The notes below the pieces were generated by a model. It was not told the DNA's origin, made no database searches, and saw only the letters and a list, made by a program, of their open reading frames with translations. DNA of 33,569 nucleotides, from positions 1 to 33,569 of IMG/VR virus record IMGVR_UViG_3300045988_135277, one strand, 5' to 3'. The position numbers were made by a program, and so were the translations under genes. The stretch is from a virus (Duplodnaviria; Heunggongvirae; Uroviricota; Caudoviricetes). Every line of letters begins with the position of its first letter. The first letter of the stretch is position 1. Of this stretch, positions 11,939 to 33,569 are shown in pieces.

Positions 11939-11959
11939 GCAATAAAATTGTCAAATTAA

Positions 11960-13466: not shown

Positions 13467-13492
13467 GAACCAGTTCCCATTGCCAGAGGGGA

Positions 13493-13552: not shown

Positions 13553-13591
13553 ATACCCGCGAAAAATGAAATTTAACCAGGAGTGCCGCAT

Positions 13592-15816: not shown

Positions 15817-15827
15817 CTGAGGTAATT

Positions 15828-16010
15828 ATGATCATGCTGATTCTCGCGCCTCTGGTGGGCGTGCTGGGGGTGCTTTTGCTGGCGTATGGTGCCTGGCTGA
15901 TTTATCCCCCGGCGGGGTTTGTTGTTGCCGGGGCGTTGTGCCTGTTCTGGTCGTGGCTGGTAGCGCGATATCTCGACCGTACACAGATGTCTGTTGGTGG
16001 AGGTAAATAG
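15828..16010 (+). CDS. small hydrophobic protein (60 aa)
   Basis: ORF track; two hydrophobic segments; fills the gap between terminase and portal. Confidence 0.45.
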
Positions 16011-17251: not shown

Positions 17252-17879
17252 TGTACCGCTGAGTCTGAAATCTGTCAGTGACTCCGGTGAGTTTGAAGGG
17301 TATGGCTCCGTCTTTGGTGTAAAGGACAGCCACGATGATGTGGTGATGTCCGGGGCATTTGCTGCTTCCCTGCGGGCGTGGAGTGACAGAAAAGCGTTAC
17401 CTGCGCTGCTCTGGCAGCACCGCATGGATGAACCCATCGGTGTTTACACCGAAATGAAGGAAGACGATGTCGGGCTTTACGTCAGGGGACGGTTGCTTAT
17501 TGATGATGATCCCCTCGCAAAACGCGCACATGCACACATGAAGGCCGGTTCGTTAACCGGCCTTTCTATTGGGTACGTCCTGAAAGACTGGGAATACGAC
17601 CGGAGCAAAGAAGCCTTTCTGCTGAAAGAAATCGACCTCTGGGAAGTCAGCCTGGTGACGTTCCCGTCTAACGACGAGGCGCGGATCAGCGACGTCAAGA
17701 ACGCACTGGCCCGCGGGGAAATCCCCGAACAGAAAAAAATCGAAAGAGTCCTGCGTGATGTCGGACTCTCCCGTACCCAGGCCAAAGCATTCATGGCCGG
17801 GGGCTATGGCGCACTGTCCCTGCGCGACGCTGAGGATGTGGGCTCTGCACTGAATGCACTGAAAAATCTGAACTTCTAA
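17229..17879 (+). CDS. prohead protease (HK97 S78-type)
   Basis: Overlaps portal 3' end; conserved prohead-protease-like N-terminal region; ATG at 17229 preferred over track start 17193. Confidence 0.88.
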   Translation: MQTKQRLDVPLSLKSVSDSGEFEGYGSVFGVKDSHDDVVMSGAFAASLRAWSDRKALPALLWQHRMDEPIGVYTEMKEDDVGLYVRGRLLIDDDPLAKRAHAHMKAGSLTGLSIGYVLKDWEYDRSKEAFLLKEIDLWEVSLVTFPSNDEARISDVKNALARGEIPEQKKIERVLRDVGLSRTQAKAFMAGGYGALSLRDAEDVGSALNALKNLNF

Positions 17880-17893
17880 TCAGGAGAAATACG

Positions 17894-19099: not shown

Positions 19100-19106
19100 T
19101 CACTCA

Positions 19107-19126
19107 GGGGCGCGGAACCGCGCCCC
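19107..19126 (+). terminator. GC-rich stem-loop after major capsid gene
   Basis: GGGGCGCGG/CCGCGCCCC inverted repeat 8 nt after the capsid stop; no U-run, so more likely a transcript-stabilising or partial terminator hairpin. Confidence 0.35.
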
Positions 19127-19148
19127 CTGTTCTGACGGGTGAAGAATC

Positions 19149-19349
19149 ATGATCCTGAAACAAGATCTGAAATGGTCACCGGACGGTATGCGTGTTGAGG
19201 TCATTCGGGCCGGTGAGTATGACGACGGGGCGCTTCCTGCCCGGGTGCAGGAGATTGCACTTCAGGCCGGGTTAGCAGAGCGCGGAATCAGTGCAAAAAG
19301 CAGTAAAGCGGCAAAAGAGAAAAAAGCCACGACCAGTAAAGAGGGCTGA
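19149..19349 (+). CDS. small hypothetical head-module protein (66 aa)
   Basis: ORF track; between capsid and connector genes. Confidence 0.5.
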   Translation: MILKQDLKWSPDGMRVEVIRAGEYDDGALPARVQEIALQAGLAERGISAKSSKAAKEKKATTSKEG

Positions 19350-19351
19350 GT

Positions 19352-19675
19352 ATGCTTCTGACAATGGAAGAGATTAAAGCCCAACTCCGGCTGGATGAGG
19401 ATTTCGATGCTGATGACCGCCATCTGCAACTGCTGGCCTGTGCGGCGCAAAAGCGGACGGAAACGTATCTGAACCGGAAGCTCTATGCACCGGATGAAAC
19501 CATTCCGGACAGCGATCCAGACGGGCTGCACCTGCCGGATGATATTCGCCTGGGGATGCTGATGCTTATCAGCCATTTTTACGAAAACCGCTCGTCGGTT
19601 ACGGAAGTGGAGAAACTCGACATGCCGCAGAGTTTTGGCTGGCTTGTCGGCCCGTACAGGTACTTTCCGCAATGA
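19352..19675 (+). CDS. head-tail connector (gp6-like)
   Basis: 107-aa protein in conserved position after the capsid; synteny-based. Confidence 0.75.
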   Translation: MLLTMEEIKAQLRLDEDFDADDRHLQLLACAAQKRTETYLNRKLYAPDETIPDSDPDGLHLPDDIRLGMLMLISHFYENRSSVTEVEKLDMPQSFGWLVGPYRYFPQ

Positions 19676-20082
19676 AAATTCGTCAGGCGCAGACCAGCGC
19701 AACCTACATTCTGCCGGACCCCGGTGAACTGAATAAACGCGTCCTGATCCGCCAGCGGGTGGATATGCCCGCGGATAACTTTGGTGTGGAGTCTCAATAC
19801 CCGGTTACGTTCCAGACATGGGCGAAGGTTATCCAGACCAGTGCCACCACCTGGCAGGAAACCGCGCAGACCGGGGACGCCATCACCCATTACATCACCA
19901 TTCGCTACCGCCGGGGGATCACTGCTGATTATGAGGTGGTCTGTGATGACAGTGTGTACCGGGTGAAACGTCAGCGCGATCTGAACGGGGCGCGGCGCTT
20001 TCTGCTGCTGGAGTGTACGGAGCTGGGCGAATATAGGCAGAGTCATGGAGGCAACAATGACGACTTCCTTTTTGCACGTTGA
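19672..20082 (+). CDS. head-tail joining / head closure protein
   Basis: Overlapping start with the previous gene; synteny-based. Confidence 0.7.
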   Translation: MKIRQAQTSATYILPDPGELNKRVLIRQRVDMPADNFGVESQYPVTFQTWAKVIQTSATTWQETAQTGDAITHYITIRYRRGITADYEVVCDDSVYRVKRQRDLNGARRFLLLECTELGEYRQSHGGNNDDFLFAR

Positions 20083-20563
20083 TTTTCAGCAGCCCGCGGA
20101 GATGCGCTTTAACCGCGCCCGTGTCCGGCGGGCGTTTGTCACGATTGGTCAGCGTCATATGCGTGATGCCCGTCGGCTGGTGATGCGCCGTGCGCGGTCG
20201 GCACCGGGTGAAAACCCCGGTTATCAGACCGGACGCCTGGCACGTTCGATTGGGTATATGGTACCCAGAGCCAGTAAACATCGCCCTGGTTTTATGGCAC
20301 GTATAGCCCCTAACCAGCGTAATGGAGAGGGAAACCGCCGTATCACCGGTGATTTTTATCCGGCTTTTTTGTTCTATGGCGTGAGGCGAGGGGCAAAGCG
20401 TCGTCGCAGCCATCATCGTGGTGCATCCGGTGGCAGCGGCTGGCGACTGGCTCCACGTAATAACTTCATGGTGGAAACGCTTGAAAAGAACCGCAGCTGG
20501 ACACGCTATTTTCTGGCGCGGGAATTACGTAAATCACTGAAGCCGGAGCGACGACGCAGATGA
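20045..20563 (+). CDS. HK97 gp10-like neck/tail component
   Basis: ORF track; basic protein in neck module; start uncertain because of overlap with the preceding ORF. Confidence 0.65.
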   Translation: MEATMTTSFLHVDFQQPAEMRFNRARVRRAFVTIGQRHMRDARRLVMRRARSAPGENPGYQTGRLARSIGYMVPRASKHRPGFMARIAPNQRNGEGNRRITGDFYPAFLFYGVRRGAKRRRSHHRGASGGSGWRLAPRNNFMVETLEKNRSWTRYFLARELRKSLKPERRRR

Positions 20564-21120
20564 AACTGACGCCTGTTATTGCTGCGCTGCGTGCCCGCTG
20601 CCCGTATTTTGAAAACCGGGTGGCAGGCGCGGCACAGTTCAAAAATCTGCCGGAGGTCGGAAAGCTGAGACTCCCGGCGGCGTATGTGGTACCGGGTGAT
20701 GACTCTCCGGGAGAAAACAAAAGCCAGACCGACTACTGGCAGGAGCTGAAAGAGGGTTTCTCCGTGGTTGTCATACTGAGTAACGGGCGTGATGAGCGCG
20801 GTCAGTTTGCCTCGTATGATGTGGTGGACGATGTCCGGCAGATGCTCTTTAAGGCCATTCTGAGCTGGAACCCGGAAGCGTGCGGTAACCCGATTACTTA
20901 TGACGGCGGCACGCTGCTGGATCTGAATCGTCATGAGCTGATTTATCAGTTCGATTTTTCGGTCATCAGCGAGCTGACCGAAGACGATACCCGCCAGCAG
21001 GATGACCTGAACAGTCTGGATGAACTGCGAACGCTGGCGATTGATGTTGATTATCTCGATCCCGGTAACGGGCCTGACGGCGATATCGAACATCACACCG
21101 AAATAACCCTTCCTTCCTGA
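20560..21120 (+). CDS. tail completion / neck protein (186 aa)
   Basis: ORF track; overlapping start; precedes tail sheath. Confidence 0.65.
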   Translation: MKLTPVIAALRARCPYFENRVAGAAQFKNLPEVGKLRLPAAYVVPGDDSPGENKSQTDYWQELKEGFSVVVILSNGRDERGQFASYDVVDDVRQMLFKAILSWNPEACGNPITYDGGTLLDLNRHELIYQFDFSVISELTEDDTRQQDDLNSLDELRTLAIDVDYLDPGNGPDGDIEHHTEITLPS

Positions 21121-21128
21121 GAATCTTC

Positions 21129-21299
21129 ATGTTTGTGAAACCTGTTAAAGGGCGGTCAGTTCCTGACCCTGCCCGCGGCGACCTTTTGCCCGCCGAGGGG
21201 CGAAATGTTGATGAGAACAACTACTGGCTGCGCCGTGAAGCAGCGGGTGATATCCGGCGCGTGAATAAAAAGGTGAATACCGATGACGATAAGCTTTAA
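21129..21299 (+). CDS. possible small protein (56 aa) preceding tail sheath
   Basis: ATG 21129 to TAA 21297-21299; below ORF-track size cut-off; overlaps sheath start. Confidence 0.3.
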   Translation: MFVKPVKGRSVPDPARGDLLPAEGRNVDENNYWLRREAAGDIRRVNKKVNTDDDKL

Positions 21300-22779
21300 C
21301 ACCATTCCGTCGAATACGCTGGTTCCGATTTTTTATGCGGAAATGGATAACTCGGCGGCGAATACTGCACAGGACAGCGGAGCATCGCTGCTGATTGGTC
21401 ATGCCAATAACGGTGCAGAGATTGTTGCCAACAGTCTGGTGCTGATGCCATCGGCAGACTATGCACGCCAGATTTGTGGTGCGGGAAGTCAGCTGGCGCG
21501 TATGGTCGAGGCTTATCGCCAGACCGACCCGTTTGGTGAACTGTATGTGATTGCCGTTCCTGAATCCACGGGCGCGGCGGCAACAGTTACGCTGACGGTG
21601 ACCGGCGCGGCAACCGAAACCGGCACGGTGAATGTTTATGTGGGACGTACCCGCGTGCAGGCACCGGTGACCAACGGCGATAACGTCGCGACGATTGCCA
21701 GCAGTATCAAAGATGCCATCAATGCCGTTCCGACCCTGCCGTTTACTGCCTCATCTTCGGCAGGCGTGGTCACACTGACCGCGCGTCATAAGGGGCTTTG
21801 CGGGAATGAAATTCCTGTCAGCCTCAATTACTACGGCTTTGGTGGGGGCGAAGTGCTGCCAGCGGGCGTACAGATTGCCGTGGCGACGGGTACCGCCGGA
21901 ACGGGCGCTCCTGTTCTCACCGGCGCGGTGGCTGCAATGGCGGATGAGCCGTTTGATTATATCGGCCTGCCGTTCAACGACACAGCCTCCGTTAACACGC
22001 TGGTGACCGAGATGAACGATACCAGCGGTCGCTGGAGCTATGCGCGTCAGCTGTATGGTCATGTGTATACGGCAAAGATCGGCACGCTGTCAGAACTGGT
22101 GACCGCAGGTGACCAGTTTAACCAGCAGCACATTACCCTGGCGGGATACGAAAAAGAGACCCAGACGCCTGCCGACGAGCTGGCGGCAAGCCGTACCGCC
22201 CGCGCAGCGGTGTTTATTCGCAACGATCCGGCACGTCCCACGCAGACCGGTGAGCTGGTGGGTATGCTGCCTGCGCCGAAGGGGAAACGGTTCACGATGA
22301 CCGAACAACAGACCCTGCTGTCTCATGGCGTGGCAACGGCGTATGTCGAAAGCGGGGTACTGCGCATTCAGCGTGATGTCACCACGTACAGGAAAAACGC
22401 TTACGGGGTTGCGGATAACAGCTACCTCGACAGTGAGACACTGCATACCAGCGCGTATGTACTGCGCAAACTGAAATCCGTCATTACCAGTAAGTACGGG
22501 CGTCACAAGCTTGCCAGTGACGGTACCCGCTTTGGTCCCGGTCAGGCGATTGTCACCCCGGCGGTGATCAAAGGGGAACTGCTGGCAACCTACCGTCAGC
22601 TTGAGCGTGCGGGGATCGTGGAAAACTACGAACTGTTTAAGCAGTACCTGGTTGTGGAGCGTGATGCCAGCGATCCGAACCGCCTGAACACGCTGTTCCC
22701 GCCTGACTATGTTAACCAGTTGCGTGTCTTTGCCGTGGTTAACCAGTTCCGTCTTCAGTATTCAGAGGAGTCTGCATAA
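21283..22779 (+). CDS. contractile tail sheath protein (Mu gpL-like)
   Basis: 498-aa protein followed by tube, chaperone and tape-measure genes. Confidence 0.9.
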   Translation: MTISFNTIPSNTLVPIFYAEMDNSAANTAQDSGASLLIGHANNGAEIVANSLVLMPSADYARQICGAGSQLARMVEAYRQTDPFGELYVIAVPESTGAAATVTLTVTGAATETGTVNVYVGRTRVQAPVTNGDNVATIASSIKDAINAVPTLPFTASSSAGVVTLTARHKGLCGNEIPVSLNYYGFGGGEVLPAGVQIAVATGTAGTGAPVLTGAVAAMADEPFDYIGLPFNDTASVNTLVTEMNDTSGRWSYARQLYGHVYTAKIGTLSELVTAGDQFNQQHITLAGYEKETQTPADELAASRTARAAVFIRNDPARPTQTGELVGMLPAPKGKRFTMTEQQTLLSHGVATAYVESGVLRIQRDVTTYRKNAYGVADNSYLDSETLHTSAYVLRKLKSVITSKYGRHKLASDGTRFGPGQAIVTPAVIKGELLATYRQLERAGIVENYELFKQYLVVERDASDPNRLNTLFPPDYVNQLRVFAVVNQFRLQYSEESA

Positions 22780-23135
22780 TGGCCCGTATCGGGGGAACCT
22801 GTTATTTCAAAATTGACGGTCAGCAGCTATCGCTGACCGGCGGCATTGAGGTGCCCATGAACAGGACGGTCAATGATGACATCATCGGCCTGGACGGTTC
22901 AGTGGACCGCAAGGAAACTCACCGTGCGCCTTATGTCAAAGGGACCTTCAAGGTGCCGAAGAATTTTCCGGTGAGCAAAATCACCTCGTCTGATGAGATG
23001 ACCATCACTGCCGAGCTGGCAAACGGTCAGGTCTATGTACTGTCGTCTGCCTGGCTGCACGGCGAAGCGAACCATAATGCCGAAGAAGGCACGGTCGATC
23101 TTGAGTTCCACGGTGAAGAAGGGGATTACCAGTAA
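22779..23135 (+). CDS. tail tube protein (Mu gpM-like)
   Basis: 118 aa, immediately after the sheath. Confidence 0.85.
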   Translation: MARIGGTCYFKIDGQQLSLTGGIEVPMNRTVNDDIIGLDGSVDRKETHRAPYVKGTFKVPKNFPVSKITSSDEMTITAELANGQVYVLSSAWLHGEANHNAEEGTVDLEFHGEEGDYQ

Positions 23136-23404
23136 TGAAAGAGCTTGAGTTAAAGAAACCGATTACCGCTCATGGCGAGACACTCTCCGTACTGGAGTTT
23201 GATGAGCCCACCGGGAAAGATGTCCGCGAGCTGGGATATCCCTACCAGATGAATCAGGATGAGTCCGTCAGACTTCTGGCGCATGTGGTATCGAAATACA
23301 TCGTGCGGCTGGCGAAAGTGCCGCAAAGCTCTGTCGACCAGATGTCTCCGGCAGACCTGAATGCAGCGGCGTGGCTTGTGGCCGGTTTTTTCCTCCAGGC
23401 CTGA
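23135..23404 (+). CDS. tail assembly chaperone (short form)
   Basis: Between tube and tape measure; contains slippery heptamer T_TTT_TTC at 23385-23391 near its 3' end. Confidence 0.75.
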   Translation: MKELELKKPITAHGETLSVLEFDEPTGKDVRELGYPYQMNQDESVRLLAHVVSKYIVRLAKVPQSSVDQMSPADLNAAAWLVAGFFLQA

Positions 23405-23553
23405 CGGCTGAATACCTCACTGATCGCTTCTTTGACTGCGCCAGTTACTGGCGCATTAATCCCTTCGAATTGCTGAATATGCCGATCAGTGAAATTCCCT
23501 TGCTGGTCAGTCAGGCAAACAGGATAGAGCAGGAGAAACGCACACATGGCTGA
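23371..23553 (+). CDS. -1 frame extension ORF of the tail assembly chaperone (long form by programmed frameshift)
   Basis: ORF in the -1 frame overlapping the chaperone 3' end and running to the tape-measure start; canonical slippery site. Confidence 0.6.
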   Translation: MACGRFFPPGLTAEYLTDRFFDCASYWRINPFELLNMPISEIPLLVSQANRIEQEKRTHG

Positions 23554-25381
23554 ATTTGAGCTTAAGGCGTTGATCACCGGTGTCGACAGGCTTTCTCCCG
23601 CGCTGTCGAAAATGCAAAAGAAAATCCGGGGATTTAAACGCCAGGCGGAAGAAGCGTCACAGGGTGGGCTGGCGCTTGGTGGCGGACTGGCAGCGGGTCT
23701 GACGCTTTCCCTGAAATCTTATGCCGATCAGGAAAACGCCGCCACCGGGCTGAAAGTCGCCATGATGGATGCGAACGGCGAGGTTGGAAAGAGCTTTCAG
23801 GACATCAATAAACTGGCTATTGGCCTGGGTAACCAGCTACCCGGTACAACGGCTGATTTCCAGAACATGATGCAGATGCTGGTGCGTCAGGGGATCCCGG
23901 CAGAAAACATTCTTGGTGGTGTGGGTAAAGCGACAGCTTATCTTGCGGTACAACTGAAAAAAACACCGGAAGCGGCTGCTGAGTTTGCTGCAAAGATGCA
24001 GGATGCTACCGGAACGGCGTCAGAAGACATGATGGGGCTGTTCGACACTATCCAGAAGGCGTTTTATCTGGGCGTTGATGATACCAACATGTTGTCCTTC
24101 TTCACTAAAACCAGTTCTGTTCTGAAAATGGTGAATAAGGACGGTCTTCAGGCTGCACAGAGTCTTGCCCCCATCAGTGTCATGATGGATCAGATGGGGA
24201 TGAACGGGGAGTCGGCAGGTAATGCCCTGCGAAAAGTTATCCAGTCCGGATTAAGCGTTAAGAAAATCAGGGACGTCAATAAAATCATGGCCCGCCAGAA
24301 ACTCGGGGTACAGCTCGATTTTACTGATGGCAAAGGGAGTTTTGGCGGTCTTGATAACATGTTCAGGCAACTGGCAAAGCTGCGAAAACTGACCGACGTT
24401 AAGCGAACCGGTGTACTTAAGGCAATATTTGGTGATGATGCCGAAACCCTTCAGGTGGTCAATGCGCTGATCGATAAAGGAAAGGATGGCTACGATCAGA
24501 TCCAGCAGAAGATGAATAAACAGGCCAGCCTGAATAAACGTGTTCAGGCTCAGCTTGGTACGCTGTCCAACCTGTGGGAGGCAATGACGGGGACCGCAAC
24601 TAACGGCCTTGCGGCTATTGGCGGCGCATTTTCTGGTGACGCTAAAAATATCACGCAATGGCTGGGGGAGTTAGGGGAAAAATTCACGAAGTTTGCGGAT
24701 GAAAATCCCCGGGTTATTCGCGGCGTCGTCGGGCTTGCTGCCGGTCTTGCGATTCTGAAACTGGGATTGATGGGCGTTGGCGGTGCCATCAGTATTGTCA
24801 GCAGGATCATGTCGATGACGCCGATTGGCATGATTGCGACGGCGATAGCCCTGGCTGCGGGATTAATTATCACTAACTGGGATGTTGTCGGACCTTATTT
24901 TAAGAAACTCTGGGAAACCATTGGTCCTTATTTTGAGACTGGCTGGGAACTTCTTAAGAAGGTTTTTGCCTGGTCGCCGCTGGGGATGGTGATCAATAAC
25001 TGGGGACCGGTTGTTAAGTGGTTTCAGGATATGTGGGACAAGCTGAAGCCAATTATTGAGTGGTTTACCGACAGTTCCGGTGACACGGTCGATGCCATTA
25101 ACTCTGCGCAGTGGGGCGCGGGTGCTTATGATGCTTATGGGACGGGAATACCGGCGCGGGGATACACACCTTATCCGGCGGTAGATCCGGCTCAGTCAAA
25201 CAACGCCTCCGATGCCACAGGCCTGAATCCCTTCATGATTAACAAAGCTTCTGCGCCAAAAGTTGATGGTGAGATCAAGGTCTCTTTTGTGAATTCGCCT
25301 CCGGGTATGCGGGTTATGGAAACGCGATCCAGCGGTTTTGATGTCAGCCATGATGTTGGCTATACGCGCTTTGGCAGGTAA
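23546..25381 (+). CDS. tail tape measure protein
   Basis: 611 aa, Ala/Gly-rich helical segments and hydrophobic central region; follows chaperone. Confidence 0.9.
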   Translation: MAEFELKALITGVDRLSPALSKMQKKIRGFKRQAEEASQGGLALGGGLAAGLTLSLKSYADQENAATGLKVAMMDANGEVGKSFQDINKLAIGLGNQLPGTTADFQNMMQMLVRQGIPAENILGGVGKATAYLAVQLKKTPEAAAEFAAKMQDATGTASEDMMGLFDTIQKAFYLGVDDTNMLSFFTKTSSVLKMVNKDGLQAAQSLAPISVMMDQMGMNGESAGNALRKVIQSGLSVKKIRDVNKIMARQKLGVQLDFTDGKGSFGGLDNMFRQLAKLRKLTDVKRTGVLKAIFGDDAETLQVVNALIDKGKDGYDQIQQKMNKQASLNKRVQAQLGTLSNLWEAMTGTATNGLAAIGGAFSGDAKNITQWLGELGEKFTKFADENPRVIRGVVGLAAGLAILKLGLMGVGGAISIVSRIMSMTPIGMIATAIALAAGLIITNWDVVGPYFKKLWETIGPYFETGWELLKKVFAWSPLGMVINNWGPVVKWFQDMWDKLKPIIEWFTDSSGDTVDAINSAQWGAGAYDAYGTGIPARGYTPYPAVDPAQSNNASDATGLNPFMINKASAPKVDGEIKVSFVNSPPGMRVMETRSSGFDVSHDVGYTRFGR

Positions 25382-25404
25382 TGAAAAATTAATCTGTTAA
25401 TGAG

Positions 25405-25426
25405 TCCCACTCCGGTGGGATTTTTT
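25405..25426 (+). terminator. short hairpin plus T-run between tape measure and DNA-circulation genes
   Basis: TCCCAC/GTGGGA stem, loop TCCG, followed by TTTTTT. Confidence 0.45.
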
Positions 25427-25441
25427 ATGTACGGAGTTTAT

Positions 25442-26770
25442 ATGACGTGGAAAGACAGACTTCAGGACGCGTCATTTCGCGGTGTGCCGTTTAAGGTTGA
25501 AGAAGAAAGTGCGGGAACCGGTCGTCGTGTGGAAACGCACGAATACCCGAACCGCGACAAACCCTATACCGAAGACCTGGGGAAAATCACTTTCCGCCCG
25601 TCCATCACGGCTTATGTGGTGGGAGATGACTGCTTTGACCAGCGCGATCGCCTGATTGACGCGCTGAATAAACCCGGTCCCGGCACGCTTGTCCATCCGA
25701 CTTACGGTGAGCTGAAAGTCTGTGTTGACGGAGAGGTTCGGGTCAGCACATCGAAGAGTGAAGGGCGTATTGTCCGCTTTGACCTGAAGTTTGTCGAAGC
25801 GGGAGAACTCTCTTACCCCACATCAGGTGCGGCGACGGCGCAGACGCTGATGTCATCCTGTTCTGCACTGGATGACTGCATCAGTGACAGTTTCAGTAGT
25901 TTCAGTATCGATGGCGTGGCAGATTTTGTGCAGAACGACGTCGTCGGTAATGCCAGCACAATGCTTGGGTATGTTTCTGATGCGATGAAAGTGGTGGATT
26001 CTGCCGTATCGGATGCCGCCAGGCTGTTGCAGGGGGATATCTCGGTACTTCTGCCGCCGCCATCGTCAGGCAAAAATTTCGTTGAGCAGGTGCAGAAAAT
26101 GTGGCGTACCGGGAAACGCCTTTATGGTAACGCCAGCGACCTGGTCACCATGATCAAAACGCTTTCCGGTGTCAGCCTCGGCAGCGATCTGCAACCGCGC
26201 GGCGTCTGGAAAACGGACAGTAAAACCACCGCCACGGCTACGCAGCAGCGTAACGTGGTTGCCAGCACCCTTCGTACGACCGCAATCAGCGAAGCGGCGT
26301 ATGCCGTCACCCGATTGCCTGCGCCAACAACTTCCGCGGTGATGCAGAATGCCGCAGTGGGGCAGGCAACAACACCTGCGCAGAGCACTGGCTGGCCTTC
26401 CGTCACGCATCCGGCACTGAACAATGCACCGGCGGTGAAAAACACAGTTGACCTGCCGACGTGGGAAGAACTGACTGACATTCGCGACACACTGAATACG
26501 GCAATTGATAAGGAGTTGTCCCGTACAACCAGTGATGCGCTGTTTCTGGCGCTGCGCCGGGTGAAAGCAGATCTGAATGCGGATATCAACACGCGCCTTG
26601 AACAGTCTGCACGGATCATTCAGCGCACGCCGGATGAGGTTTTACCCGCGCTGGTGCTGGCGGCGACCTGGTTTGATAACGCGGCGCGTGACGCGGATAT
26701 TATCCGGCGTAATGCCATTACGCATCCCGGCTTTGTGCCGGTGATCCCTCTGAAGGTGCCAGTGCAATGA
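25442..26770 (+). CDS. DNA circulation protein (Mu gpN-like)
   Basis: Synteny after tape measure; ATG at 25442 preferred over track start 25400. Confidence 0.8.
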   Translation: MTWKDRLQDASFRGVPFKVEEESAGTGRRVETHEYPNRDKPYTEDLGKITFRPSITAYVVGDDCFDQRDRLIDALNKPGPGTLVHPTYGELKVCVDGEVRVSTSKSEGRIVRFDLKFVEAGELSYPTSGAATAQTLMSSCSALDDCISDSFSSFSIDGVADFVQNDVVGNASTMLGYVSDAMKVVDSAVSDAARLLQGDISVLLPPPSSGKNFVEQVQKMWRTGKRLYGNASDLVTMIKTLSGVSLGSDLQPRGVWKTDSKTTATATQQRNVVASTLRTTAISEAAYAVTRLPAPTTSAVMQNAAVGQATTPAQSTGWPSVTHPALNNAPAVKNTVDLPTWEELTDIRDTLNTAIDKELSRTTSDALFLALRRVKADLNADINTRLEQSARIIQRTPDEVLPALVLAATWFDNAARDADIIRRNAITHPGFVPVIPLKVPVQ

Positions 26771-27846
26771 ACGATAACGTCACGCTACGGGTAAATGGCC
26801 GGGAGTGGAATGGCTGGACATCGGTGCGCATCGGTGCCGGTATTGAACGGCTGGCGCGGGATTTCAGTGTGGAGATCACTCGCCAGTGGCCGGGAGATGA
26901 GGGTATCACCACGCTTCAGCCGCGCATTAAAAACGGTTCAAAAGTGGAAGTGCTGATTGGTGATGAGCTGGTGATCACCGGCTGGGTGGAGGCGACGCCC
27001 GTTCGGTACGATGCCCGTTCGGTCAGCACCGGTATTGCCGGACGTAGTCTGACGGCTGACCTGATTGACTGTGCAGCCGAACCGACACAGTTTAACGGAC
27101 GCTCGCTGGTGCAGATTGCGCAGGCGCTTGCTGCGCCTTTCGGCATTGAGGTGGTGAACAGCGGTGCGCCGTCGGGTGTTATTCCTGATGTTCAGCCTGA
27201 TCACGGTGAAACGGTGATTGAGGTAATCAACAAAATACTCGGTCAGCAGCAGGCGCTGGCTTACGACGACCCGCACGGCAGGCTGGTGATTGGCGGTATT
27301 GGCTCAACGCGGGCACATACCGCGCTGGTACTTGGGGAAAACATCCTTTCCTGTGATACGGAGAAGAGTATCCGGGAGCGGTTTTCTGTTTACCAAGTGG
27401 CGGGGCAGCGTGCCGGAAACGACGATGATTTCGGTGAGGCCACCACCACCGCGCTGCGGGCCCGCACAGAGGACGCATTTATTGCCCGTTACCGTCCGAT
27501 GTATATCAGGCAGACAGGGCAGGCTACGGGGGCAGGCTGTATTGCGCGTGCTGACTTTGAAGCCCGGCAACGGGCGGCGCGGACGGATGAAACCACCTAT
27601 GTGGTGCAGGGCTGGCGACAGGGTAACGGTACGCTGTGGCAACCCAACCAGCGGGTGATTGTCTTTGATCCGGTCTGTGGTTTTGACAATACCGAACTGC
27701 TTGTTTCGGAAGTCACGTTTACTCAGGACCAGAACGGCACCCTGACGGAAATCCGTGTCGGCCCGCCTGATGCTTATCTGCCTGAACCTGAAGCCCCCGG
27801 CGCGCGGAAAAAGAAAAAAGCCAGAGTACAGGAGGACCCGTTCTGA
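26767..27846 (+). CDS. baseplate hub protein (Mu gpP / gp44-like)
   Basis: 359 aa, overlapping start; synteny. Confidence 0.8.
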   Translation: MNDNVTLRVNGREWNGWTSVRIGAGIERLARDFSVEITRQWPGDEGITTLQPRIKNGSKVEVLIGDELVITGWVEATPVRYDARSVSTGIAGRSLTADLIDCAAEPTQFNGRSLVQIAQALAAPFGIEVVNSGAPSGVIPDVQPDHGETVIEVINKILGQQQALAYDDPHGRLVIGGIGSTRAHTALVLGENILSCDTEKSIRERFSVYQVAGQRAGNDDDFGEATTTALRARTEDAFIARYRPMYIRQTGQATGAGCIARADFEARQRAARTDETTYVVQGWRQGNGTLWQPNQRVIVFDPVCGFDNTELLVSEVTFTQDQNGTLTEIRVGPPDAYLPEPEAPGARKKKKARVQEDPF

Positions 27847-28394
27847 TGAGGACGATTGAAGCCATGCAGCGACAACTTCTCGGCCTGATTGGGCGGGCAG
27901 TGGTGAAAAGCATCAGTGCCGCCACGAAATGTCAGACCGTGGATGTGTCCCTGATTGCCGGTGAACCCAAAGCCGGGGTTGAACATCTTGAACCCTACGG
28001 TTTTACCGCAAGGGCAAACAGCGGTGCGGAAGCGGTGGTGTTGTTTCCGGATGGCGACCGTTCTCATGCGGTGGTTGTTACGGTGTCGGACCGGCGCTAC
28101 CGCCTGAAAGGGCTGCAGACGGGTGAGGTGGCTGTCTATGACGATCAGGGGCAGTCTGTGACGCTGACCCGGGAGGGGATCGTGGTGGACGGTGCAGGTA
28201 AAACGATCACGTTTCGCAATGCGCCCAGAGCACGTTTTGAAATGGACCTGGAAGTGACCGGACAGGTGAAAGACCTGTGCGACTCCGGCGGCACCACCAT
28301 GTCAGCGATGCGGCTTGCCTATAACGGCCATTGTCACAGAGAGAACGGTCAGGGCAGTAACACCGACAAACCGGATAAAGCGATGGAGGCATGA
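27846..28394 (+). CDS. baseplate assembly protein V / spike (Mu gp45-like)
   Basis: 182 aa; synteny and gpV-like size. Confidence 0.8.
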   Translation: MRTIEAMQRQLLGLIGRAVVKSISAATKCQTVDVSLIAGEPKAGVEHLEPYGFTARANSGAEAVVLFPDGDRSHAVVVTVSDRRYRLKGLQTGEVAVYDDQGQSVTLTREGIVVDGAGKTITFRNAPRARFEMDLEVTGQVKDLCDSGGTTMSAMRLAYNGHCHRENGQGSNTDKPDKAMEA

Positions 28395-28819
28395 TGGAAC
28401 TGTGGCTGACGGTGAACGGTAAACGCACCTGCGCCAGCGCACCGCTGGATCCGCTGACCCGCGCCGTGGTGATTTCCCTGTTTACCTGGCGGCGGGCGGA
28501 GCCTGATGACAATGCCGACGTCCCGATGGGATGGTGGGGGGATACCTGGCCTGCGGTACAGAATGACCGTTACGGCTCCCGGCTGTGGCTGCTTCAGCGC
28601 GGCAAACTGACCAATCAGCTGGTGCAGACGGTAAGGGGGTATATCCGCGAATGCCTGCAATGGATGATTGATGACGGTGTGGTGTCCCGTATTGATCTGG
28701 ATATCCGCCGCACCGGGATTAATGAACTGGGTAACAGTATCACTCTCTGGCGTCGTGACGGACCGGTAATGATTTCTTTTGATGATCTGTGGAGTGCGAT
28801 AACGCATGGCGGACAGTGA
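28391..28819 (+). CDS. baseplate protein (Mu gp46-like)
   Basis: 142 aa; overlapping start; synteny. Confidence 0.78.
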   Translation: MMELWLTVNGKRTCASAPLDPLTRAVVISLFTWRRAEPDDNADVPMGWWGDTWPAVQNDRYGSRLWLLQRGKLTNQLVQTVRGYIRECLQWMIDDGVVSRIDLDIRRTGINELGNSITLWRRDGPVMISFDDLWSAITHGGQ

Positions 28820-29864
28820 ATTTCAGCGCCCGACGCTGGCAGAAAATATCAGTATGCTCCGTAACGATTTATTCGCCAGGCTGGACGTCAGCGACACGCT
28901 CCGGCGCATGGATGAAGACGTGCGGGCAAAGGTGTATGCGGCGGCGCTGCATACGGTTTACGGGTACATCGATTATCTGGCAATGAACATGCTGCCTGAC
29001 CTGTGCGATGAGTCCTGGCTGGCGCGACATGCTGCGATGAAACGGTGTCCGCGCAAGGGGGCCACGGCTGCCAGCGGGTATATGCGCTGGGAAGGTGTCA
29101 GCGATGGCCTGAAGGTGACCGCCGGAAGTGTTATTCAGCGCGATGACCTGGTTCAGTACACGGCAACTGCCGATGCAACCAGCACCGGTGGTGTCCTGCG
29201 CGTGCCGATCGCCTGCTCAAGTGCAGGCGCGGTCGGTAACGCTGACGACGGTACGTCATTAATCCTGGTCACGCCGGTTAATGGTCTGCCGTCTTCCGGC
29301 GAGGCAGATACCCTGACAGGTGGATTTGATACTGAAGAGCTGGAAACGTGGCGCGCCCGCGTCATTGAGCGGTATTACTGGACGCCTCAGGGCGGGGCTG
29401 ACGGGGACTATGTCGTCTGGGCTAAAGAAGTGCCCGGCATTACCCGCGCATGGACATACCGACATTGGATGGGAACGGGGACTGTCGGTGTGATGATTGC
29501 CAGCAGTGACCTGATTAACCCCATTCCGGAAGAATCAACGGAAACGGCGGCAAGACAACATATCGAGCCACTGGCCCCGGTGGCAGGCTCTGATTTGTAT
29601 GTATTCAGGCCGGTGGCGCACAAAGTGGATTTTCATATCCGCGTGACGCCGGACACACCGGAAATACGGGCTGCCATCACCGCGGAGTTGCGTTCATTCC
29701 TGCTGCGTGATGGTTATCCGCAGGGAGAGCTGAAGGTATCGCGTATCAGTGAAGCGATTTCCGGTGCGAATGGGGAATACAGCCATCAGTTGCTTGCTCC
29801 GGCGGACAATATCTCCATTGCAAAAAATGAACTGGCGGTTCTGGGGACGATTTCATGGACGTGA
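28806..29864 (+). CDS. baseplate J-like protein (Mu gp47-like)
   Basis: 352 aa; synteny. Confidence 0.85.
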
Positions 29865-30439
29865 CAAACGATGATTACATCCGTCTGTTGTCGGCACTGT
29901 TGCCCCCTGGGCCGGCGTGGTCAGCCAGCGATCCGGCGATTGCCGGTGCGGCACCGTCATTAACCCGTGCTCATCAGCGTGCGGATGCCCTGATGCGGGA
30001 GCTGGATCCGCGCACCACCACCGAACTGATAAACCGCTGGGAGCGTCTGTGCGGCCTGCCGGATGAATGTATTCCGGCAGGGACGCAGACCCTTCGCCAG
30101 CGTCAGCAACGGCTGGATGCGAAGGTTAACCTGGCGGGTGGCATCAATGAGGATTTTTACCTTGCGCAGCTTGCTGCCCTGGGCAGACCAGATGCCACCA
30201 TCACGCGATACGACAAAAGCACGTTCACCTGCTCATCGGCCTGTACTGACGCGGTGAATGCGCCGGAATGGCGGTATTACTGGCAGGTCAATATGCCAGC
30301 TGCCACCAACACCACCTGGATGACATGTGGCGATCCCTGCGATTCCGCACTGCGTATCTGGGGGGACACCGTTATCGAGTGCGTGCTTAACAAACTCTGC
30401 CCGTCGCATACCTACGTAATTTTTAAATATCCGGAGTAA
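29855..30439 (+). CDS. tail protein (Mu gp48-like)
   Basis: 194 aa; overlapping start; precedes tail fibre. Confidence 0.78.
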
Positions 30440-30442
30440 TCC

Positions 30443-31369
30443 ATGCATCGTATAGACACGAAAACCGCGCAGAAGGATAAGTTCGGCGCGGGTAAGAACG
30501 GTTTTACCCGTGGTAACCCCCAGACCGGCACGCCTGCCACCGATCTGGATGATGACTACTTTGACATGTTGCAGGAGGAGCTCTGCAGCGTGGTGGAGGC
30601 ATCCGGTGCCAGCCTGGAGAAGGGGCGGCATGACCAGCTGCTTACCGCGCTTCGTGCGCTGCTGTTAAGTCGCAAAAATCCGTTTGGCGATATCAAATCG
30701 GACGGCACGGTGAAAACGGCTCTTCAAAACCTTGGTTTGGGAGATACAAGCGGATACGTGGGACGCCGGCTGAGTACCCGGGCTTTCGCGTCATCAGGTA
30801 CGTATACCCCATCACCAGAAACAAAACGGATCAGGGTCACAATAACGGGCGGCGGTGGCGGAGGGGGTGGCTGCCAGGCTATATCCAGTAACGAAACGTT
30901 TTTCGGTGCTGGCGGTGGGGCCGGAGGGACAGTAATCACCATACTGACCCCGACACAGAATAGTTATCCTGTCACTATCGGCGCAGGTGGGGCCGGCGGC
31001 GTTGGTGCGACGAACGGCCTCAAGGGCGGTTCATGCTCGTTCGGATCGGTAATAGCCCCTGGTGGTGAAGGCGGCGGAAAAGTAGGAGTCACAAACACAA
31101 ACGGCGGTAACGGAGGCGTACCGAATATTGGCGATATCCGCATCACTGGTGGAGATGGAGGCGACGGTCAGTCCGGGAATATCAGCGTCAGCGGTGAAGG
31201 CGGTGCATCGTACTGGGGAGGCGGTGGACGTGCAGGCGCTGGCGGTGGCGTTAGAGGCAGGGCATTTGGTTCAGGCGGAGGTGGTGCATACGATGCAGGT
31301 TATAGCGGAACCAGTATGACGGGCGGGAAAGGTGCTGATGGGGTTTGTATTATCGAGGAGTTTGCATAA
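30443..31369 (+). CDS. tail fibre protein with glycine-rich C-terminal half
   Basis: Conserved fibre-like N-terminus followed by long GGxGG-type repeats; followed by Tfa. Confidence 0.8.
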
Positions 31370-31779
31370 TGAATGCGTCATATGCAGTTATTGAAAATGG
31401 GATGGTTGTGAATGTCATTGTCTGGGATGGCGAGGATGAATTCACTGTGCCGGATAATCTGCAGCTCATTAATATTTCTGATATCAGTGAGCAGCCCGGA
31501 ATCGGCTGGGCGTATTCAGACGGGGTATTTACTGCGCCGCTCCCTCCGGAACGTTCTCATGATGAACTGGTAGCTGACGCTGAACAGAAAAAACAGTCGT
31601 TGATAGACGCAGCAATGGTCAATATCAGCGTGATTCAGTTAAAGCTGCAGGCCGGGCGCAAACTGACGCAAGAAGAAACTACCCGACTTAACGTTGTGCT
31701 GGATTATATCGACGCTGTGACGGCAACAGATACCAGCACCGCACCGGATGTCATCTGGCCTGAACTGCCGGAGGAGTAG
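31369..31779 (+). CDS. tail fibre assembly protein (Tfa)
   Basis: Typical Tfa N-terminus ([21 protein letters not shown]); ATG overlaps fibre stop. Confidence 0.85.
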   Translation: MNASYAVIENGMVVNVIVWDGEDEFTVPDNLQLINISDISEQPGIGWAYSDGVFTAPLPPERSHDELVADAEQKKQSLIDAAMVNISVIQLKLQAGRKLTQEETTRLNVVLDYIDAVTATDTSTAPDVIWPELPEE

Positions 31780-31938
31780 GCCATTCAATATCTGGCGCAC
31801 TGGAGGTATCAACCAGCTCCAGTGCATCCAGATAATCCAGCCACAGATTAAACTGCACTTTTCATCATCAGACAATCGTCCAGGCGCGAGCCTGGATGCT
31901 GGCATCTCTGCCCAATTTAAATTTGAGAGGTAATTATG

Positions 31939-32493
31939 TTAACAGTTAATCCACCAGTATGTGCCGGGTGCCTGCGGGTAAGTGGCGGCGGCAACCTCGT
32001 GAACCATCCCCCAATCCAGAGCTGTAGAGGCATTGGCTATGGTGGCGGCGGAGATAACCTCCTTCCACTCATTGCGGCTCTTACTGAGCTCAATCTGACT
32101 CTCCAAAATATCGACAAAACGCTCCAGGTCATTATTGAGACACGCGCTCCACTCACTGACGCGTGAGTGATCCACGCTTGGGCCCATCAAGCCCCAGTGA
32201 AAAGGATGCAGTAAGAACCGACTCCCAGGATTCGCCTTACGTTCAGACCCTGCAAGAAAAATGATATTAGCGACTGATTCAACATTGCTAAGGTTATGGG
32301 TCTTTACTGGGATTGGTAGGGCCTTTAGAAAGTGATAAGCAGTAAAACCTGCAACGAGGTCACCGCCCGGACTGGAAATGTAAATGTTTAACTCAGTCGC
32401 CCCCTGATTGATAGCTCCAAGGCAATTGCTAATTAAAGCGTTAACGGTGGACTGATTTACGGGCACCGTGAAATTTATAGTATGCAGCATCAC
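31939..32493 (-). CDS. ClpP-fold (S14-like) serine peptidase family protein, 184 aa
   Basis: Strong AAGGAG RBS; alignable by eye to ClpP core: NIYISSPGGDLVAGFTAYHFLK vs ClpP [23 protein letters not shown]; Ser in ...VESVANIIFLAG at the ClpP catalytic-Ser register; His in LLHPF vs MIHQP. Confidence 0.7.
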   Translation of the reverse strand: MMLHTINFTVPVNQSTVNALISNCLGAINQGATELNIYISSPGGDLVAGFTAYHFLKALPIPVKTHNLSNVESVANIIFLAGSERKANPGSRFLLHPFHWGLMGPSVDHSRVSEWSACLNNDLERFVDILESQIELSKSRNEWKEVISAATIANASTALDWGMVHEVAAATYPQAPGTYWWINC

Positions 32494-32602
32494 TATCTCC
32501 TTGTTTAGTTAGTGGACACATTACCCTGGGAGCAATAAAAAACATAACGCATACTGCATGCTTAGTTGGTGACCGGCGATCTAAGTTTAGCAAGGATGCA
32601 TA

Positions 32603-33001
32603 TCTGAAGGCGATACGCTGGTGGTCTGAAAGCGTGACCGCCTCGGTCGCAGCATGCGACATCTTGTTGGGTTAGTGGAGGAACTGCGGGAGAAAGGTGT
32701 TAACTTCCGGAGCCTGACGGATAGCATCGATACGAGTACGCCTATGGGGCGCTTCTTCTTTCATGTGATGGGTGCCCTGGCTGAAATGGAACGAGAACTG
32801 ATTGTTGAACGAACAAAAGCTGGCCTGGAAGCTGCTCGCGCACAGGGACGAATTGGTGGACGACGTCCCAAACTTACACCAGAACAATGGGCACAGGCCG
32901 GACGATTAATTGCATCAGGAGTTCCTCGCCAGAAGGTGGCGATCATCTATGATATTGGCATATCGACTTTGTATAAGAGGTTTCCGGTCGGAGATAAATG
33001 A
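32603..33001 (+). pseudogene. pin: pin/gin/cin-type serine DNA invertase, 5'-truncated with in-frame TGA
   Basis: C-terminal ~115 aa match Pin/Gin (RSLTDSIDTSTPMGRFFFHVMGALAEMERELIVERT...); upstream in-frame remnant GDTLVV*KRDRLGRS has a stop where Pin has Trp; similarity disappears upstream of ~32600, so the catalytic-Ser N-terminus is absent. Confidence 0.8.
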
Positions 33002-33312
33002 AACCGTAGCACGTCGTATGCAAGAACGTGCTACGACTGGCTGGTGAACTTCCGATAGTGCGAGTATTGAATGATTTCCAACTGTTATCGATTTTGCGTA
33101 TTTTTTGCATGAGAGGATTTTTACCTCCTCCCACCGATCCTCCATGGCTTTACGCCAGTGTCTCTGGTCTGCTATGTGCCAGATGCGGACTTTGCAAAAA
33201 GTACGGTTCGTTAATCATTATGGTGGAGGCGACGTAATCTGTCTCATAATTTCCTAGTATTGCTTAACTCACTGAAAACGTTTATATTGTCATTGCGAAC
33301 TATCGTTTGATT

Positions 33313-33569
33313 GGTGATGCTGCCAACTTACTGATTTAGTGTATGATGGTCTTTTTGAGGTGCTCCAGTGGCTTCTGTTTCTATCAGCTGTCCCTCCTGT
33401 TCAGCTACTGACGGGGTGGTGCGTAACGGCAAAAGCACTGCCGGACATCAGCGCTATCTCTGCTCTCACTGCCGTAAAACATGGCAACTGCAGTTCACTT
33501 ACACCGCTTCTCAACCCGGTACGCACCAGAAAATCATTGATATGGCCATGAATGGCGTTGGATGCCGGG
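33313..33569 (+). mobile_element. IS1 insertion sequence, left end (element continues beyond window)
   Basis: IS1 left inverted repeat GGTGATGCTGCCAACTTACTGATTTAGTGTATGATGG at 33313 followed by insA. Confidence 0.9.
33368..33569 (+). CDS. insA: IS1 InsA (partial, 3' end outside window)
   Basis: GTG start; translation [67 protein letters not shown] matches IS1 InsA. Confidence 0.88.

Follow-up and report, generated by a model that had tools for sequence, protein, structure and literature searches.

A ClpP-like cargo cassette in place of the alternative tail-fibre segment of an e14-type prophage invertible region

Introduction

Can the tail-fibre switch of this prophage still be operated and, if it cannot, which event disabled it? 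The question is raised by a stretch of 33,569 nucleotides from a virus of the Caudoviricetes (IMG/VR record IMGVR_UViG_3300045988_135277), here called the window. Close to its right end, a damaged invertase gene of the Pin type is followed by the left end of an IS1 element. A sequence-only reading had taken the switch to be inactivated and, together with the IS1 insertion, had seen in this region the right end of a decaying or domesticated prophage. It had suggested alignments to Pin and Gin, a search for gix-like sites and an inspection of the DNA beyond the window, and it had named a sequencing error as one way in which its inference could fail. Here, we compared the region with related prophages and with 5426 complete Escherichia coli genomes. 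The features are listed in Table 1.

Table 1. Features of the fibre, cassette, invertase and IS1 region (window coordinates).
Feature	Coordinates	Strand	Basis and remarks
Tail-fibre gene, 308 aa	30443..31369	+	Single ORF; Pfam Gly_rich_2 residues 119-305; PHROG tail-fibre families
Left crossover site (pix/gix-type), CTCTTCAAAACCTTGGTTTGGGAGAT	30720..30745	+	Constant/variable junction of the fibre gene; orphan without partner
Tail-fibre assembly chaperone, 136 aa	31369..31779	+	Pfam Caudo_TAP, E 2.9e-21; PHROG 188
Second, oppositely oriented fibre-assembly gene, of which the last 35 or so codons remain	31751..31887	-	Comparison with L003; PGAP
Cargo cassette, 744 bp	31857..32600	.	No homology to L003 between these coordinates
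Lone ClpP-like gene, 183 aa from ATG	31939..32490	-	AAGGAG Shine-Dalgarno 6 nt upstream
Invertase pseudogene	32600..33001	+	pinE codons 52-184: end of catalytic domain, E-helix, HTH
In-frame TGA at the Pin Trp61 codon	32627..32629	+	Common to all 9 aligned sequences
Perfect hairpin with 10-bp stem, directly 3' of the pin stop	33005..33035	+	Repeat search; fold -20.9 kcal/mol, z -2.65
IS1 left end, cut by the window end	33313..33569	+	IRL 33313..33335; insA GTG start 33368

Results

The invertase gene has lost its 5' part

The remnant comprises the 3' two-thirds of a pinE-type serine invertase gene. When an intact PinE, encoded at 4911..5465 of the related prophage L003, was searched against the window with tblastn, residues 52-184 matched 32600..32998 with 93% identity, in agreement with the earlier statement that the similarity starts only at about 32603. 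The alignment began at residue 52-53, and residues 1-51 had no match anywhere in the window. A displaced N-terminal fragment of the invertase was looked for across the whole window and was not found. The catalytic serine is missing because it sits in the MLIGYVRVSTNDQ segment of PinE, within the absent N-terminal part, as had been suspected.

The frame from 32495 contains ISEGDTLVV, a stop and KRDRLGRSMRHLV, and ends with GDK and a stop. The internal stop is the TGA that had been noted at a Trp codon of Pin, here identified as Trp61. A further 4 stops occur within 36 codons in the same frame upstream of 32600, and no uninterrupted reading frame for an invertase is present. When the TGA was conceptually translated as tryptophan, the product matched residues 55-181 of Mu Gin (PDB 3uj3) with an E value of 5e-63. 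In Pfam, only positions 79-144 of the 145 of Resolvase were recognised, along with HTH_7. By homology, the surviving part belongs to the DNA invertase subfamily (the Pin/Gin/Cin/Hin small serine recombinases), an assignment that holds for that part only.

PGAP labels the identical sequence as 'recombinase family protein; internal stop; missing N-terminus'. The invertase is an ordinary pseudogene, flagged already by the routine annotation of near-identical genomes. In a search for the direct ancestor of the remnant, no intact pinE among the 5426 genomes was above about 90% nucleotide identity to it. The hairpin behind the pin stop codon is probably the former pin terminator. It is overlapped by a sub-threshold match to CssrB, which was the sole Rfam result.

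The fibre gene retains a single crossover site

The fibre gene encodes about 100 conserved, StfP-like N-terminal residues, followed by a glycine-rich distal domain. Relatives with a different fibre tip are homologous to it up to 30744/30745, at the left crossover site. This site holds the only exact AAACCNNGGTTT of the window. When up to 3 mismatches to the 26-nt consensus were allowed, it was still the only match in the window, and 0 matches would be expected by chance. It also contains TTGGTTTGGGAGA, which corresponds to 13/16 nt of the e14 inverted repeat published in PMC12529663. The search for gix-like sites uncovered no close inverted copy of it in the window: the best candidate on the minus strand, at 32007..32019, differs at 3 positions, and minus-strand matches to the crossover repeat stayed at chance level (9 found, 10.2 expected). 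A second site was also sought with three patterns at up to 3 mismatches, and besides the left site only chance-level matches were obtained. Two inverted 26-bp sites are present in the intact relative L003, where the partner TTCTCCCAAACCAACGTTTATGAAAA lies at 4831..4856.

In L003, the order of genes is fibre, chaperone, inverted chaperone, gp53-like tip, pixR and pinE, which is the intact layout. In the window, the chaperone gene starts with an ATG that overlaps the stop codon of the fibre gene (TAATG). The segment 31594..31856 matched L003 3895..4157, where the two chaperone genes meet at their 3' ends in convergent orientation. The equivalent of the second, inverted chaperone remnant is called by PGAP as a frameshifted, N-terminally truncated pseudogene.

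For hin, about 100 bp separate the enhancer from a hix site (PMC3798978). In comparison with L003, nucleotides 1-153 of pin, the stretch equivalent to the hin enhancer region, are deleted in the window. By analogy, the Fis-dependent recombinational enhancer was probably lost along with the 5' part of pin.

A cargo cassette occupies the place of the alternative segment

The cassette shares no homology with L003. It takes the place of the alternative fibre tip together with the greater part of the matching chaperone gene and, further on, of the right crossover site and the first 51 codons of pin. It was found in 26 of the 5426 complete E. coli genomes, in 25 of them at ≥99.6% identity. The carriers occupy five or more chromosomal sites (thrW, dacD, ssrA, dusA and others) and have differing backbones. 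All examined carriers were colinear.

Eight other carriers, all independent assemblies, were aligned with the window, and 8/8 had the identical junction and the identical TGA. Among the 9 aligned copies, the pin remnant showed no additional stop or frameshift. A core of about 31744..32823 was near-identical across the 8 aligned carriers and both flanks diverged, as expected of a mosaic. In the gene neighbouring the remnant, 4 sites in 555 bp were segregating among the aligned carriers. The variation within the pin remnant was concentrated at its 3' end and resembled a recombination junction.

Terminal repeats or target duplications were looked for at the cassette ends and nothing convincing was found. 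A promoter scan around the cassette gave background-level matches, none of them upstream of the ClpP-like gene or of a 115-codon ORF within the pin remnant. Terminator-like matches were above background (5 found, 1.4 expected) and marked nothing informative. In another relative, L005, an acyltransferase gene was observed where the ClpP cassette sits and the pin remnant was even shorter; in other relatives, PD-T4-3 was found beside pin.

The cassette encodes a non-canonical ClpP-like protein

The protein encoded by the cassette scored 50.6 bits with Pfam CLP_protease, for which the cut-off is 20.2, and none of the NCBIfam ClpP models reached its cut-off. The match starts at position 18 of the 182 positions of the Pfam model, so that the protein is N-terminally short, and the N-terminal axial loops, to which ClpX or ClpA docks, are not present. 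Ser72, His95 and Glu113 were invariant across 26 homologues. A complete Ser-His-Asp triad was not found, as there is no Asp and the third position is an Ala aligned to Pro151 of PpClpP1. The AlphaFold model had a pLDDT of 92.6 and showed the ClpP fold when compared by Foldseek with ClpP structures (TM 0.81-0.91). The top PDB match was 9uxt, PpClpP1 of Pseudomonas plecoglossicida, with a TM of 0.91 and 40% identity over 167 residues. As predicted from its sequence and its model, the protein is a non-canonical ClpP paralogue of peptidase family S14.

PpClpP1 lacks the N-terminal axial-loop module and does not bind ClpX; its tetradecameric assembly and its peptidase activity are known (PMC12900304). 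Both proteins have 183 aa and are short at the N-terminus, and in both the Ser-His pair is conserved and the catalytic Asp absent. They differ in the third triad position, which is Ala here and Pro in PpClpP1, and the gene described here is phage cargo. Judged by sequence, this cargo gene, as a PpClpP1 homologue with 40% identity, is the only mildly new item of the region.

Two candidate roles were considered and rejected. PHROG and NCBIfam gave weak matches of the head-maturation-protease type. A role in head maturation was discarded, since an HK97-type prohead protease is already encoded within the head module of the prophage and since the ClpP-like gene stands alone, on the opposite strand and outside that module. 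A role as a known defence system was not retained, as neither the ClpP-like protein nor the pin remnant had a match at E ≤ 0.01 in PADLOC-DB 2.0, a library in which the positive controls PD-Lambda-1 and PD-T4-3 matched strongly. In the literature searched, we found no description of the gene as defence or moron and no experimental phenotype.

Unrelated temperate phages carry the gene at their accessory hot spots. It resembles phage morons and the genes at defence hot spots (the P2 hot spots, the lambda bor/iss spot, P22 immI) in that it is a single, self-contained gene on the opposite strand. The differing accessory positions in unrelated phages are also moron-like. As at defence hot spots, validated defence genes are present, PD-T4-3 at the same flank in relatives and PD-Lambda-1 elsewhere in this prophage. 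Unlike defence-cargo genes, the ClpP-like gene matched no known defence model in PADLOC.

IS1 probably arrived separately and is associated with a deletion

The 23-bp left inverted repeat of IS1, GGTGATGCTGCCAACTTACTGAT, begins exactly at 33313, 312 bp past the pin stop codon, and is followed by the insA start before the element runs off the window, just as first read. Both the repeat and the start are canonical and nothing about them is unusual. The IS1 part in the window is 96% identical to the annotated IS1 of the relative L004.

Everything beyond 33569 is deduced from the relative L001, which is 99.9% identical over 31700..33569. There, the rest of the element was found as anticipated, a full 768-bp IS1 at 7614..8381, annotated as IS1A-family transposase. 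The target-site duplication of 8-9 bp that had been looked for was missing from its flanks, CGTTTGATT and CGTATAATG. In comparison with the IS1-free relative L005, IS1 exactly replaces 972 bp (L005 3029..4000), a stretch with a 306-aa ORF; L005 is without the ClpP cassette, so this deletion is deduced across related, non-identical right arms. Either an adjacent deletion or recombination between two IS1 copies leaves no target duplication. As in IS1-mediated adjacent deletion, one flank here borders DNA from which it is normally separated by 972 bp. The missing target duplication and the replaced 972 bp indicate that the insertion was followed by a deletion or by recombination. The idea that IS1 marks a rearrangement breakpoint is correct in this sense, and the rearrangement is a small one.

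IS1 was present in only 9/25 cassette carriers and absent from 16/25. We infer that its insertion was a later event, separate from the lesion of the invertase. In a 99.1%-identical annotated relative, attL lies at tRNA-Thr and attR, a 48-bp repeat, about 1.5 kb beyond IS1, which places IS1 inside the prophage. In this relative, the structural genes are all intact and the integrase is present, and the ORF sizes of the window match. The early region of the window is a different mosaic from that of the best late-region match.

Discussion

The fibre switch of this prophage is irreversibly locked on the glycine-rich tip, since the invertase is defunct, a single crossover site is left and the alternative fibre segment has been deleted. 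The inactivation proposed from the sequence alone is borne out more strongly than it was put. We give a probability of about 90% to the explanation that a cassette replacement killed the switch, that the resulting block spread and that IS1 came later.

The ancestor would have been a prophage of the e14/Pin type, with a constant fibre head, the left site, tip A and its chaperone, an opposed chaperone and tip B, the right site and the invertase gene. In one replacement event, tip B and most of the chaperone belonging to it, along with the right site and the first 51 codons of pin, would have given way to the 744-bp ClpP-like cassette. The change of Trp61 from TGG to TGA in the 3' part of the invertase gene may have been acquired after the truncation or may have been present already. 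The switch would then have been fixed: its own enzyme was gone, an enzyme supplied in trans would lack a second site to act on, and no segment was left that could be inverted. The block presumably moved between prophages by homologous recombination, with the 3' end of the chaperone gene and the invertase remnant as arms. The dead invertase would travel with the cassette because it serves as a homology arm. In one lineage, IS1 would have inserted 312 bp downstream, and 972 bp of neighbouring cargo DNA would then have been deleted.

We weighed this history against other explanations. Were the invertase truly intact, the stop and the missing start would have to be sequencing or assembly errors, or the TGA would have to be recoded. 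A lone change of TGG to TGA could indeed arise from an error. However, the same TGA and the same 5' junction are found in eight other assemblies and the adjoining cassette in 25 genomes; since they are identical in independent assemblies, the junction and the TGA are not sequencing artefacts, and this escape from the earlier inference is closed. In addition, 51 N-terminal codons are missing throughout the window, 4 stops lie upstream, and a read-through of the TGA would not bring back the catalytic serine. The chance of an intact invertase is practically nil. It is also most improbable that the switch still flips in trans, by PinQ, PinR or PinE encoded elsewhere in the chromosome. PinQ and PinE do act in trans on the e14 P segment and invert it (PMC12529663), and the left site is well preserved. 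However, a pair of inverted sites is required for inversion and the window offers a single site, and the carriers examined all have the same arrangement. Recombination of the orphan site with sites in other prophages is the most that could occur, and this would be a large chromosomal inversion and not fibre switching.

A continued use of the remnant is conceivable, but we regard it as very doubtful. The 115-codon ORF from the ATG at 32654 (Pin Met70-Lys184, with the E-helix and the HTH) might act as a DNA-binding protein that occupies pix-type sites or poisons Pin-family invertases. It is open in 9/9 aligned copies, keeps a complete HTH_7 domain, and Pin-family enzymes are known to work in trans across prophages (PMC12529663). 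However, the open frame says nothing about selection, because the carriers are too similar for extra lesions to be expected. The ATG is preceded by no recognisable Shine-Dalgarno sequence and no promoter-like site upstream, the clustering of variation at the 3' end is unlike purifying selection, and L005 retains a still shorter remnant. An origin of the switch loss in the IS1 insertion, with the region as the eroding end of a dying prophage, would fit the distance of 312 bp between IS1 and the pseudogene, the lack of a target-site duplication and the roughly 1 kb of adjoining DNA that is missing. Yet the same dead invertase is carried by the 16 cassette carriers that have no IS1, the pin remnant is untouched by IS1, and the prophage of the near-identical relative has intact structural genes, an integrase, attL and attR. 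This origin is hardly credible. The truncation was made by the ClpP-like cassette, and the intact fibre and chaperone ORFs of the window also speak against a decaying prophage end. The cassette replacement, with IS1 as a later arrival, remains our preferred explanation.

The closest known system is the e14 P segment with PinE of E. coli K-12, to which Mu G/Gin and P1 C/Cin are similar. The baseplate genes gp46, J/gp47 and YmfQ are the same, as are the StfP-type constant fibre head and the sequence of the crossover site. In contrast to e14, there is one site here and no alternative tip, a ClpP-like gene fills the space, and the invertase, interrupted by an internal stop, begins only at residue 52. 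Orphan or defunct Pin-family loci of cryptic prophages likewise have a serine-invertase gene with no functional switch beside it. The PinQ and PinR enzymes are intact and act in trans, whereas the remnant described here is catalytically dead, and the cassette replacement as its cause and the spread across prophages can be traced.

The properties of the cassette and its protein can be joined in one tentative reading, which draws on analogy and which we consider possible, if rather unlikely as a whole. A mobile ClpP-like cargo protein might co-assemble with the host ClpP and re-tune ClpXP and ClpAP proteolysis in lysogens, for example to exclude phages or to modulate induction. The cassette would spread by way of its dead invertase and chaperone arms, and fibre-inversion modules would be a recurrent landing pad, as is suggested by the acyltransferase of L005 and by PD-T4-3 beside pin in other relatives.

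The pseudogenised invertase and IS1 matter little by themselves, and both had been flagged in near-identical genomes. A phage released from such a prophage would have one fixed fibre type and no alternation of host range. The more useful result is the mechanism, in which a fibre switch was in all likelihood lost by the replacement with a cargo cassette and not by random decay. Since then, the cassette has reached at least five prophage contexts. Along with the acyltransferase and PD-T4-3 at the same flank, it marks the e14-type invertase region as a hot spot for cargo, and the uncharacterised phage-borne ClpP1-like gene is a candidate for functional testing.

Structure of the invertase remnant

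When PinE of the relative with an intact switch (L003, 4911..5465) was used as a tblastn query, residues 52-184 matched 32600..32998 of the window with 93% identity, and residues 1-51 had no match across the entire 33.6-kb window. Read from 32495, the plus strand translates as ...ISEGDTLVV*KRDRLGRSMRHLVGLVEEL...FPVGDK*. The in-frame TGA (32627..32629) is at the position of Trp61 in PinE and Gin, and four more stops lie in the remnant's frame within 36 codons upstream of 32600. With the stop read as W, the remnant aligned to residues 55-181 of Mu Gin (PDB 3uj3, E 5e-63). Pfam detected positions 79-144 of 145 of Resolvase, the last part of the catalytic domain, together with HTH_7 and nothing else. 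The catalytic serine sits in MLIGYVRVSTNDQ, a segment absent from the remnant. The sequence-only reading, which described a degenerate Pin-type frame with a TGA in place of Trp and without the N-terminal catalytic-serine region, was therefore right and had placed the frame correctly.

The remnant, from a well-known family, is unexceptional as a pseudogene and already flagged in public annotation: PGAP lists an identical sequence as a recombinase family protein with an internal stop and no N-terminus. What is new here is its origin and its travelling with a cargo cassette.

Rfam gave a sub-threshold match to CssrB, a Shigella sRNA family, at 32975..33035 (34 bits, gathering score 76); the match takes in the 3' end of pin as well as a hairpin with a perfect 10-bp stem (33005..33035, fold z -2.65). 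The segment 33036..33106, ~70 bp downstream of pin, is ~90% conserved in some 3000 E. coli genomes; the 41-aa 'capsid protein' that PGAP sometimes places there looks like an annotation artefact.

Replacement of the alternative fibre segment and loss of the switch

For the ancestral layout we used L003 (strain FY10), where the same baseplate genes as in the window are followed by the fibre, its chaperone, an inverted chaperone, an inverted gp53-like fibre tip, a crossover site and pinE. Homology to the window extends up to 30744 (the constant fibre head), covers 31594..31856, where the two chaperone genes converge with their 3' ends, and resumes from 32601 with pinE nt 155. The 744 bp at 31857..32600 are unrelated to L003 and hold a single minus-strand ORF (31939..32490). 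The cassette has therefore taken the place of the alternative fibre tip, the right crossover site, pin codons 1-51 and most of the second chaperone, of which only some 35 codons at the end remain.

The crossover site at the fibre junction contains the window's only exact AAACCNNGGTTT and was the only match in the window to the 26-nt consensus at ≤3 mismatches, where 0 are expected by chance. Of the 16 nt in the e14 inverted repeat at which PinQ and PinE are reported to invert, it includes 13; such invertases act in trans between prophages (PMC12529663). No close inverted copy was found in the window; the nearest minus-strand match (32007..32019) differs at 3 positions, and this search's total of nine matches was not above chance expectation. 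In L003, the partner site TTCTCCCAAACCAACGTTTATGAAAA lies ~55 bp upstream of pinE. Since the enzyme, the second site and the alternative segment are all missing, fibre inversion is impossible, and an invertase acting in trans would not restore it. In hin, ~100 bp separate the Fis-dependent enhancer and a hix site (PMC3798978). Because the corresponding part of pin is deleted, the enhancer is likely to have been lost too. The earlier proposal of a locked switch, for which a search for crossover sites had been suggested, is borne out.

A Mu-like-tail prophage (L006, 3831..5588) has a glycine-rich fibre still carrying a pix-like sequence, an 88%-identical ClpP-like gene and no invertase.

Features of the window, carriers of the cassette and locations of ClpP-like homologues
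Feature	Position	Strand	Details
pix/gix-type crossover site, CTCTTCAAAACCTTGGTTTGGGAGAT	30720..30745		sole one in window; exactly at constant/variable junction of 308-aa fibre gene
IS1 left end	left inverted repeat starts exactly at 33313		312 bp after pin stop codon; insA start 33368; extends past window end
PD-Lambda-1 anti-phage defence protein	6312..7814	-	500-aa ORF; full-length PADLOC match, E 9.5e-198; early region
Cassette carrier L002	adjoins dacD		different baseplate
Cassette carrier L008	ssrA		
Cassette carrier L011	dusA		
ClpP-like homologue, P2-like prophage	adjoins fibre chaperone		
ClpP-like homologue, Klebsiella lambdoids	between lysis and terminase genes		
ClpP-like homologue, Proteus prophage	adjoins gene N		
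ClpP-like homologue, P22-like phage	immI region		
ClpP-like homologue, Mu-like-tail prophage			pin wholly absent

The IS1 insertion and the state of the prophage

The left inverted repeat and insA confirmed the IS1 where the sequence-only reading had put it, running off the window. To attribute the lock to this element would be wrong. Only 9 of the 25 carriers of the same lesion have IS1, and it was the cassette that replaced the front of the invertase; the IS1 is a separate and younger event. The 99.9% identical carrier L001 has a complete IS1 of 768 bp, with CGTTTGATT as its left flank, CGTATAATG as its right flank and no target-site duplication. In the IS1-free L005, which has the same right arm, the left flank runs into 972 bp that end exactly at the start of the right flank. 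Therefore, relative to L005, IS1 replaces 972 bp holding most of a 306-aa ORF without a family match, which fits an adjacent deletion by IS1 or IS1-IS1 recombination. The idea that IS1 marks a rearrangement breakpoint is right on a small scale. The element is not the edge of the prophage: attR, where 48 bp of the 3' end of tRNA-Thr are repeated, is found a further 1.5 kb out.

Two right-arm ORFs between pin and attR (L005 3112..4032, 306 aa; L001 8743..9522, 259 aa) have no Pfam or PADLOC match; in the window's lineage most of the former has been lost at IS1. Right after attR, L001 carries another tyrosine integrase and a further element (9883..11309), and its thrW holds a tandem array of integrated elements.

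A decaying prophage end had also been proposed. Positions 13116..33569 are 99.1% identical to the thrW prophage of strain 123636, where all late genes are annotated intact (HNH endonuclease, terminase, portal, prohead protease, capsid, sheath, tube, tape measure and baseplate), and the ORF sizes in the window agree, which argues against decay. No evidence of general decay was seen in the window or in this annotated relative; the right end lost its switch, nothing more. The fibre gene, split into two by PGAP, is one continuous ORF in the window, and the chaperone gene overlaps its stop codon by one base, as would be expected for translational coupling. Compared with the late-region match, positions 1..13115 (the early region) form a different lambdoid mosaic, and no single complete E. 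coli genome in the collection searched contained the whole window. Relatives of its PD-Lambda-1 protein are named DUF4041 or SNIPE-associated by PGAP.

Spread of the cassette

The cassette was present in 26 of 5426 complete E. coli genomes. In 25 of these the cassette has at least 99.6% identity and lies between the chaperone remnant and the recombinase pseudogene, at varied sites and in varied backbones (thrW in L001 and L014, beside dacD, ssrA, dusA and others). The 5' junction and the TGA were identical in 8/8 other carriers aligned, and none of the eight had an additional stop in the remnant. The lesion is old, shared and mobile. Its core (~31744..32823) varies by just 2-8 bases across carriers, 2-3 in most, and differences accumulate leftward in the chaperone gene and rightward from 32824 or 32920 in the pin remnant. 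A near-identical core with divergent flanks is the mosaic that movement of the block by homologous recombination would produce, with the conserved end of the chaperone gene and the remnant of the invertase as arms; the dead invertase would be retained because it serves as a homology arm. Among the 5426 genomes no intact pinE closer than ~90% to the remnant was found.

In L005 an acyltransferase (Acyl_transf_3, 1353..2378) occupies the position of the ClpP-like gene, and the pin remnant (2574..2717) is shorter still, beginning at the equivalent of 32850. The same switch appears to have been replaced independently here. In other relatives PD-T4-3, a LEM-3-like GIY-YIG gene (E 5.6e-140), lies just downstream of pinE or its remnant (L003 5523..6296; L009, L010 and L012 3459..4232), and in L010 and L012 a cytosine methyltransferase and a type II restriction enzyme lie beside it. 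These three genes are absent from the window, as 33001..33201 is contiguous. Taken together, the acyltransferase and the PD-T4-3 genes mark the invertase neighbourhood as a cargo hot spot.

The ClpP-like cargo gene

The cassette ORF has AAGGAG 6 nt upstream of its ATG and matched the Pfam Clp protease family with 50.6 bits (cut-off 20.2). The family is widespread in Enterobacterales, and Ser72, His95 and Glu113 are invariant across 26 homologues, down to ~30% identity. The AlphaFold model was confident (pLDDT 92.6), and its best solved match was PpClpP1 of Pseudomonas plecoglossicida (PDB 9uxt; TM 0.91, 40% identity, sequence E 4e-38). Truncated at its N-terminus, this ClpP has a Ser-His-Pro triad, a wide pore and low activity; ClpX is not bound, but with canonical ClpP the protein forms mixed tetradecamers of higher activity (PMC12900304). 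The window protein shares the Ser and His, whereas its third triad position is Ala, not Pro.

In unrelated temperate phages the homologues stand alone at accessory positions, usually on the opposite strand, and the gene behaves as a moron. It matched none of the PADLOC models, and a literature search found nothing on it. Any function is speculation; the most concrete hypothesis, drawn from PpClpP1 biochemistry, is that the protein might co-assemble with host ClpP. This ClpP1-like moron is the sole item that might repay experiment.
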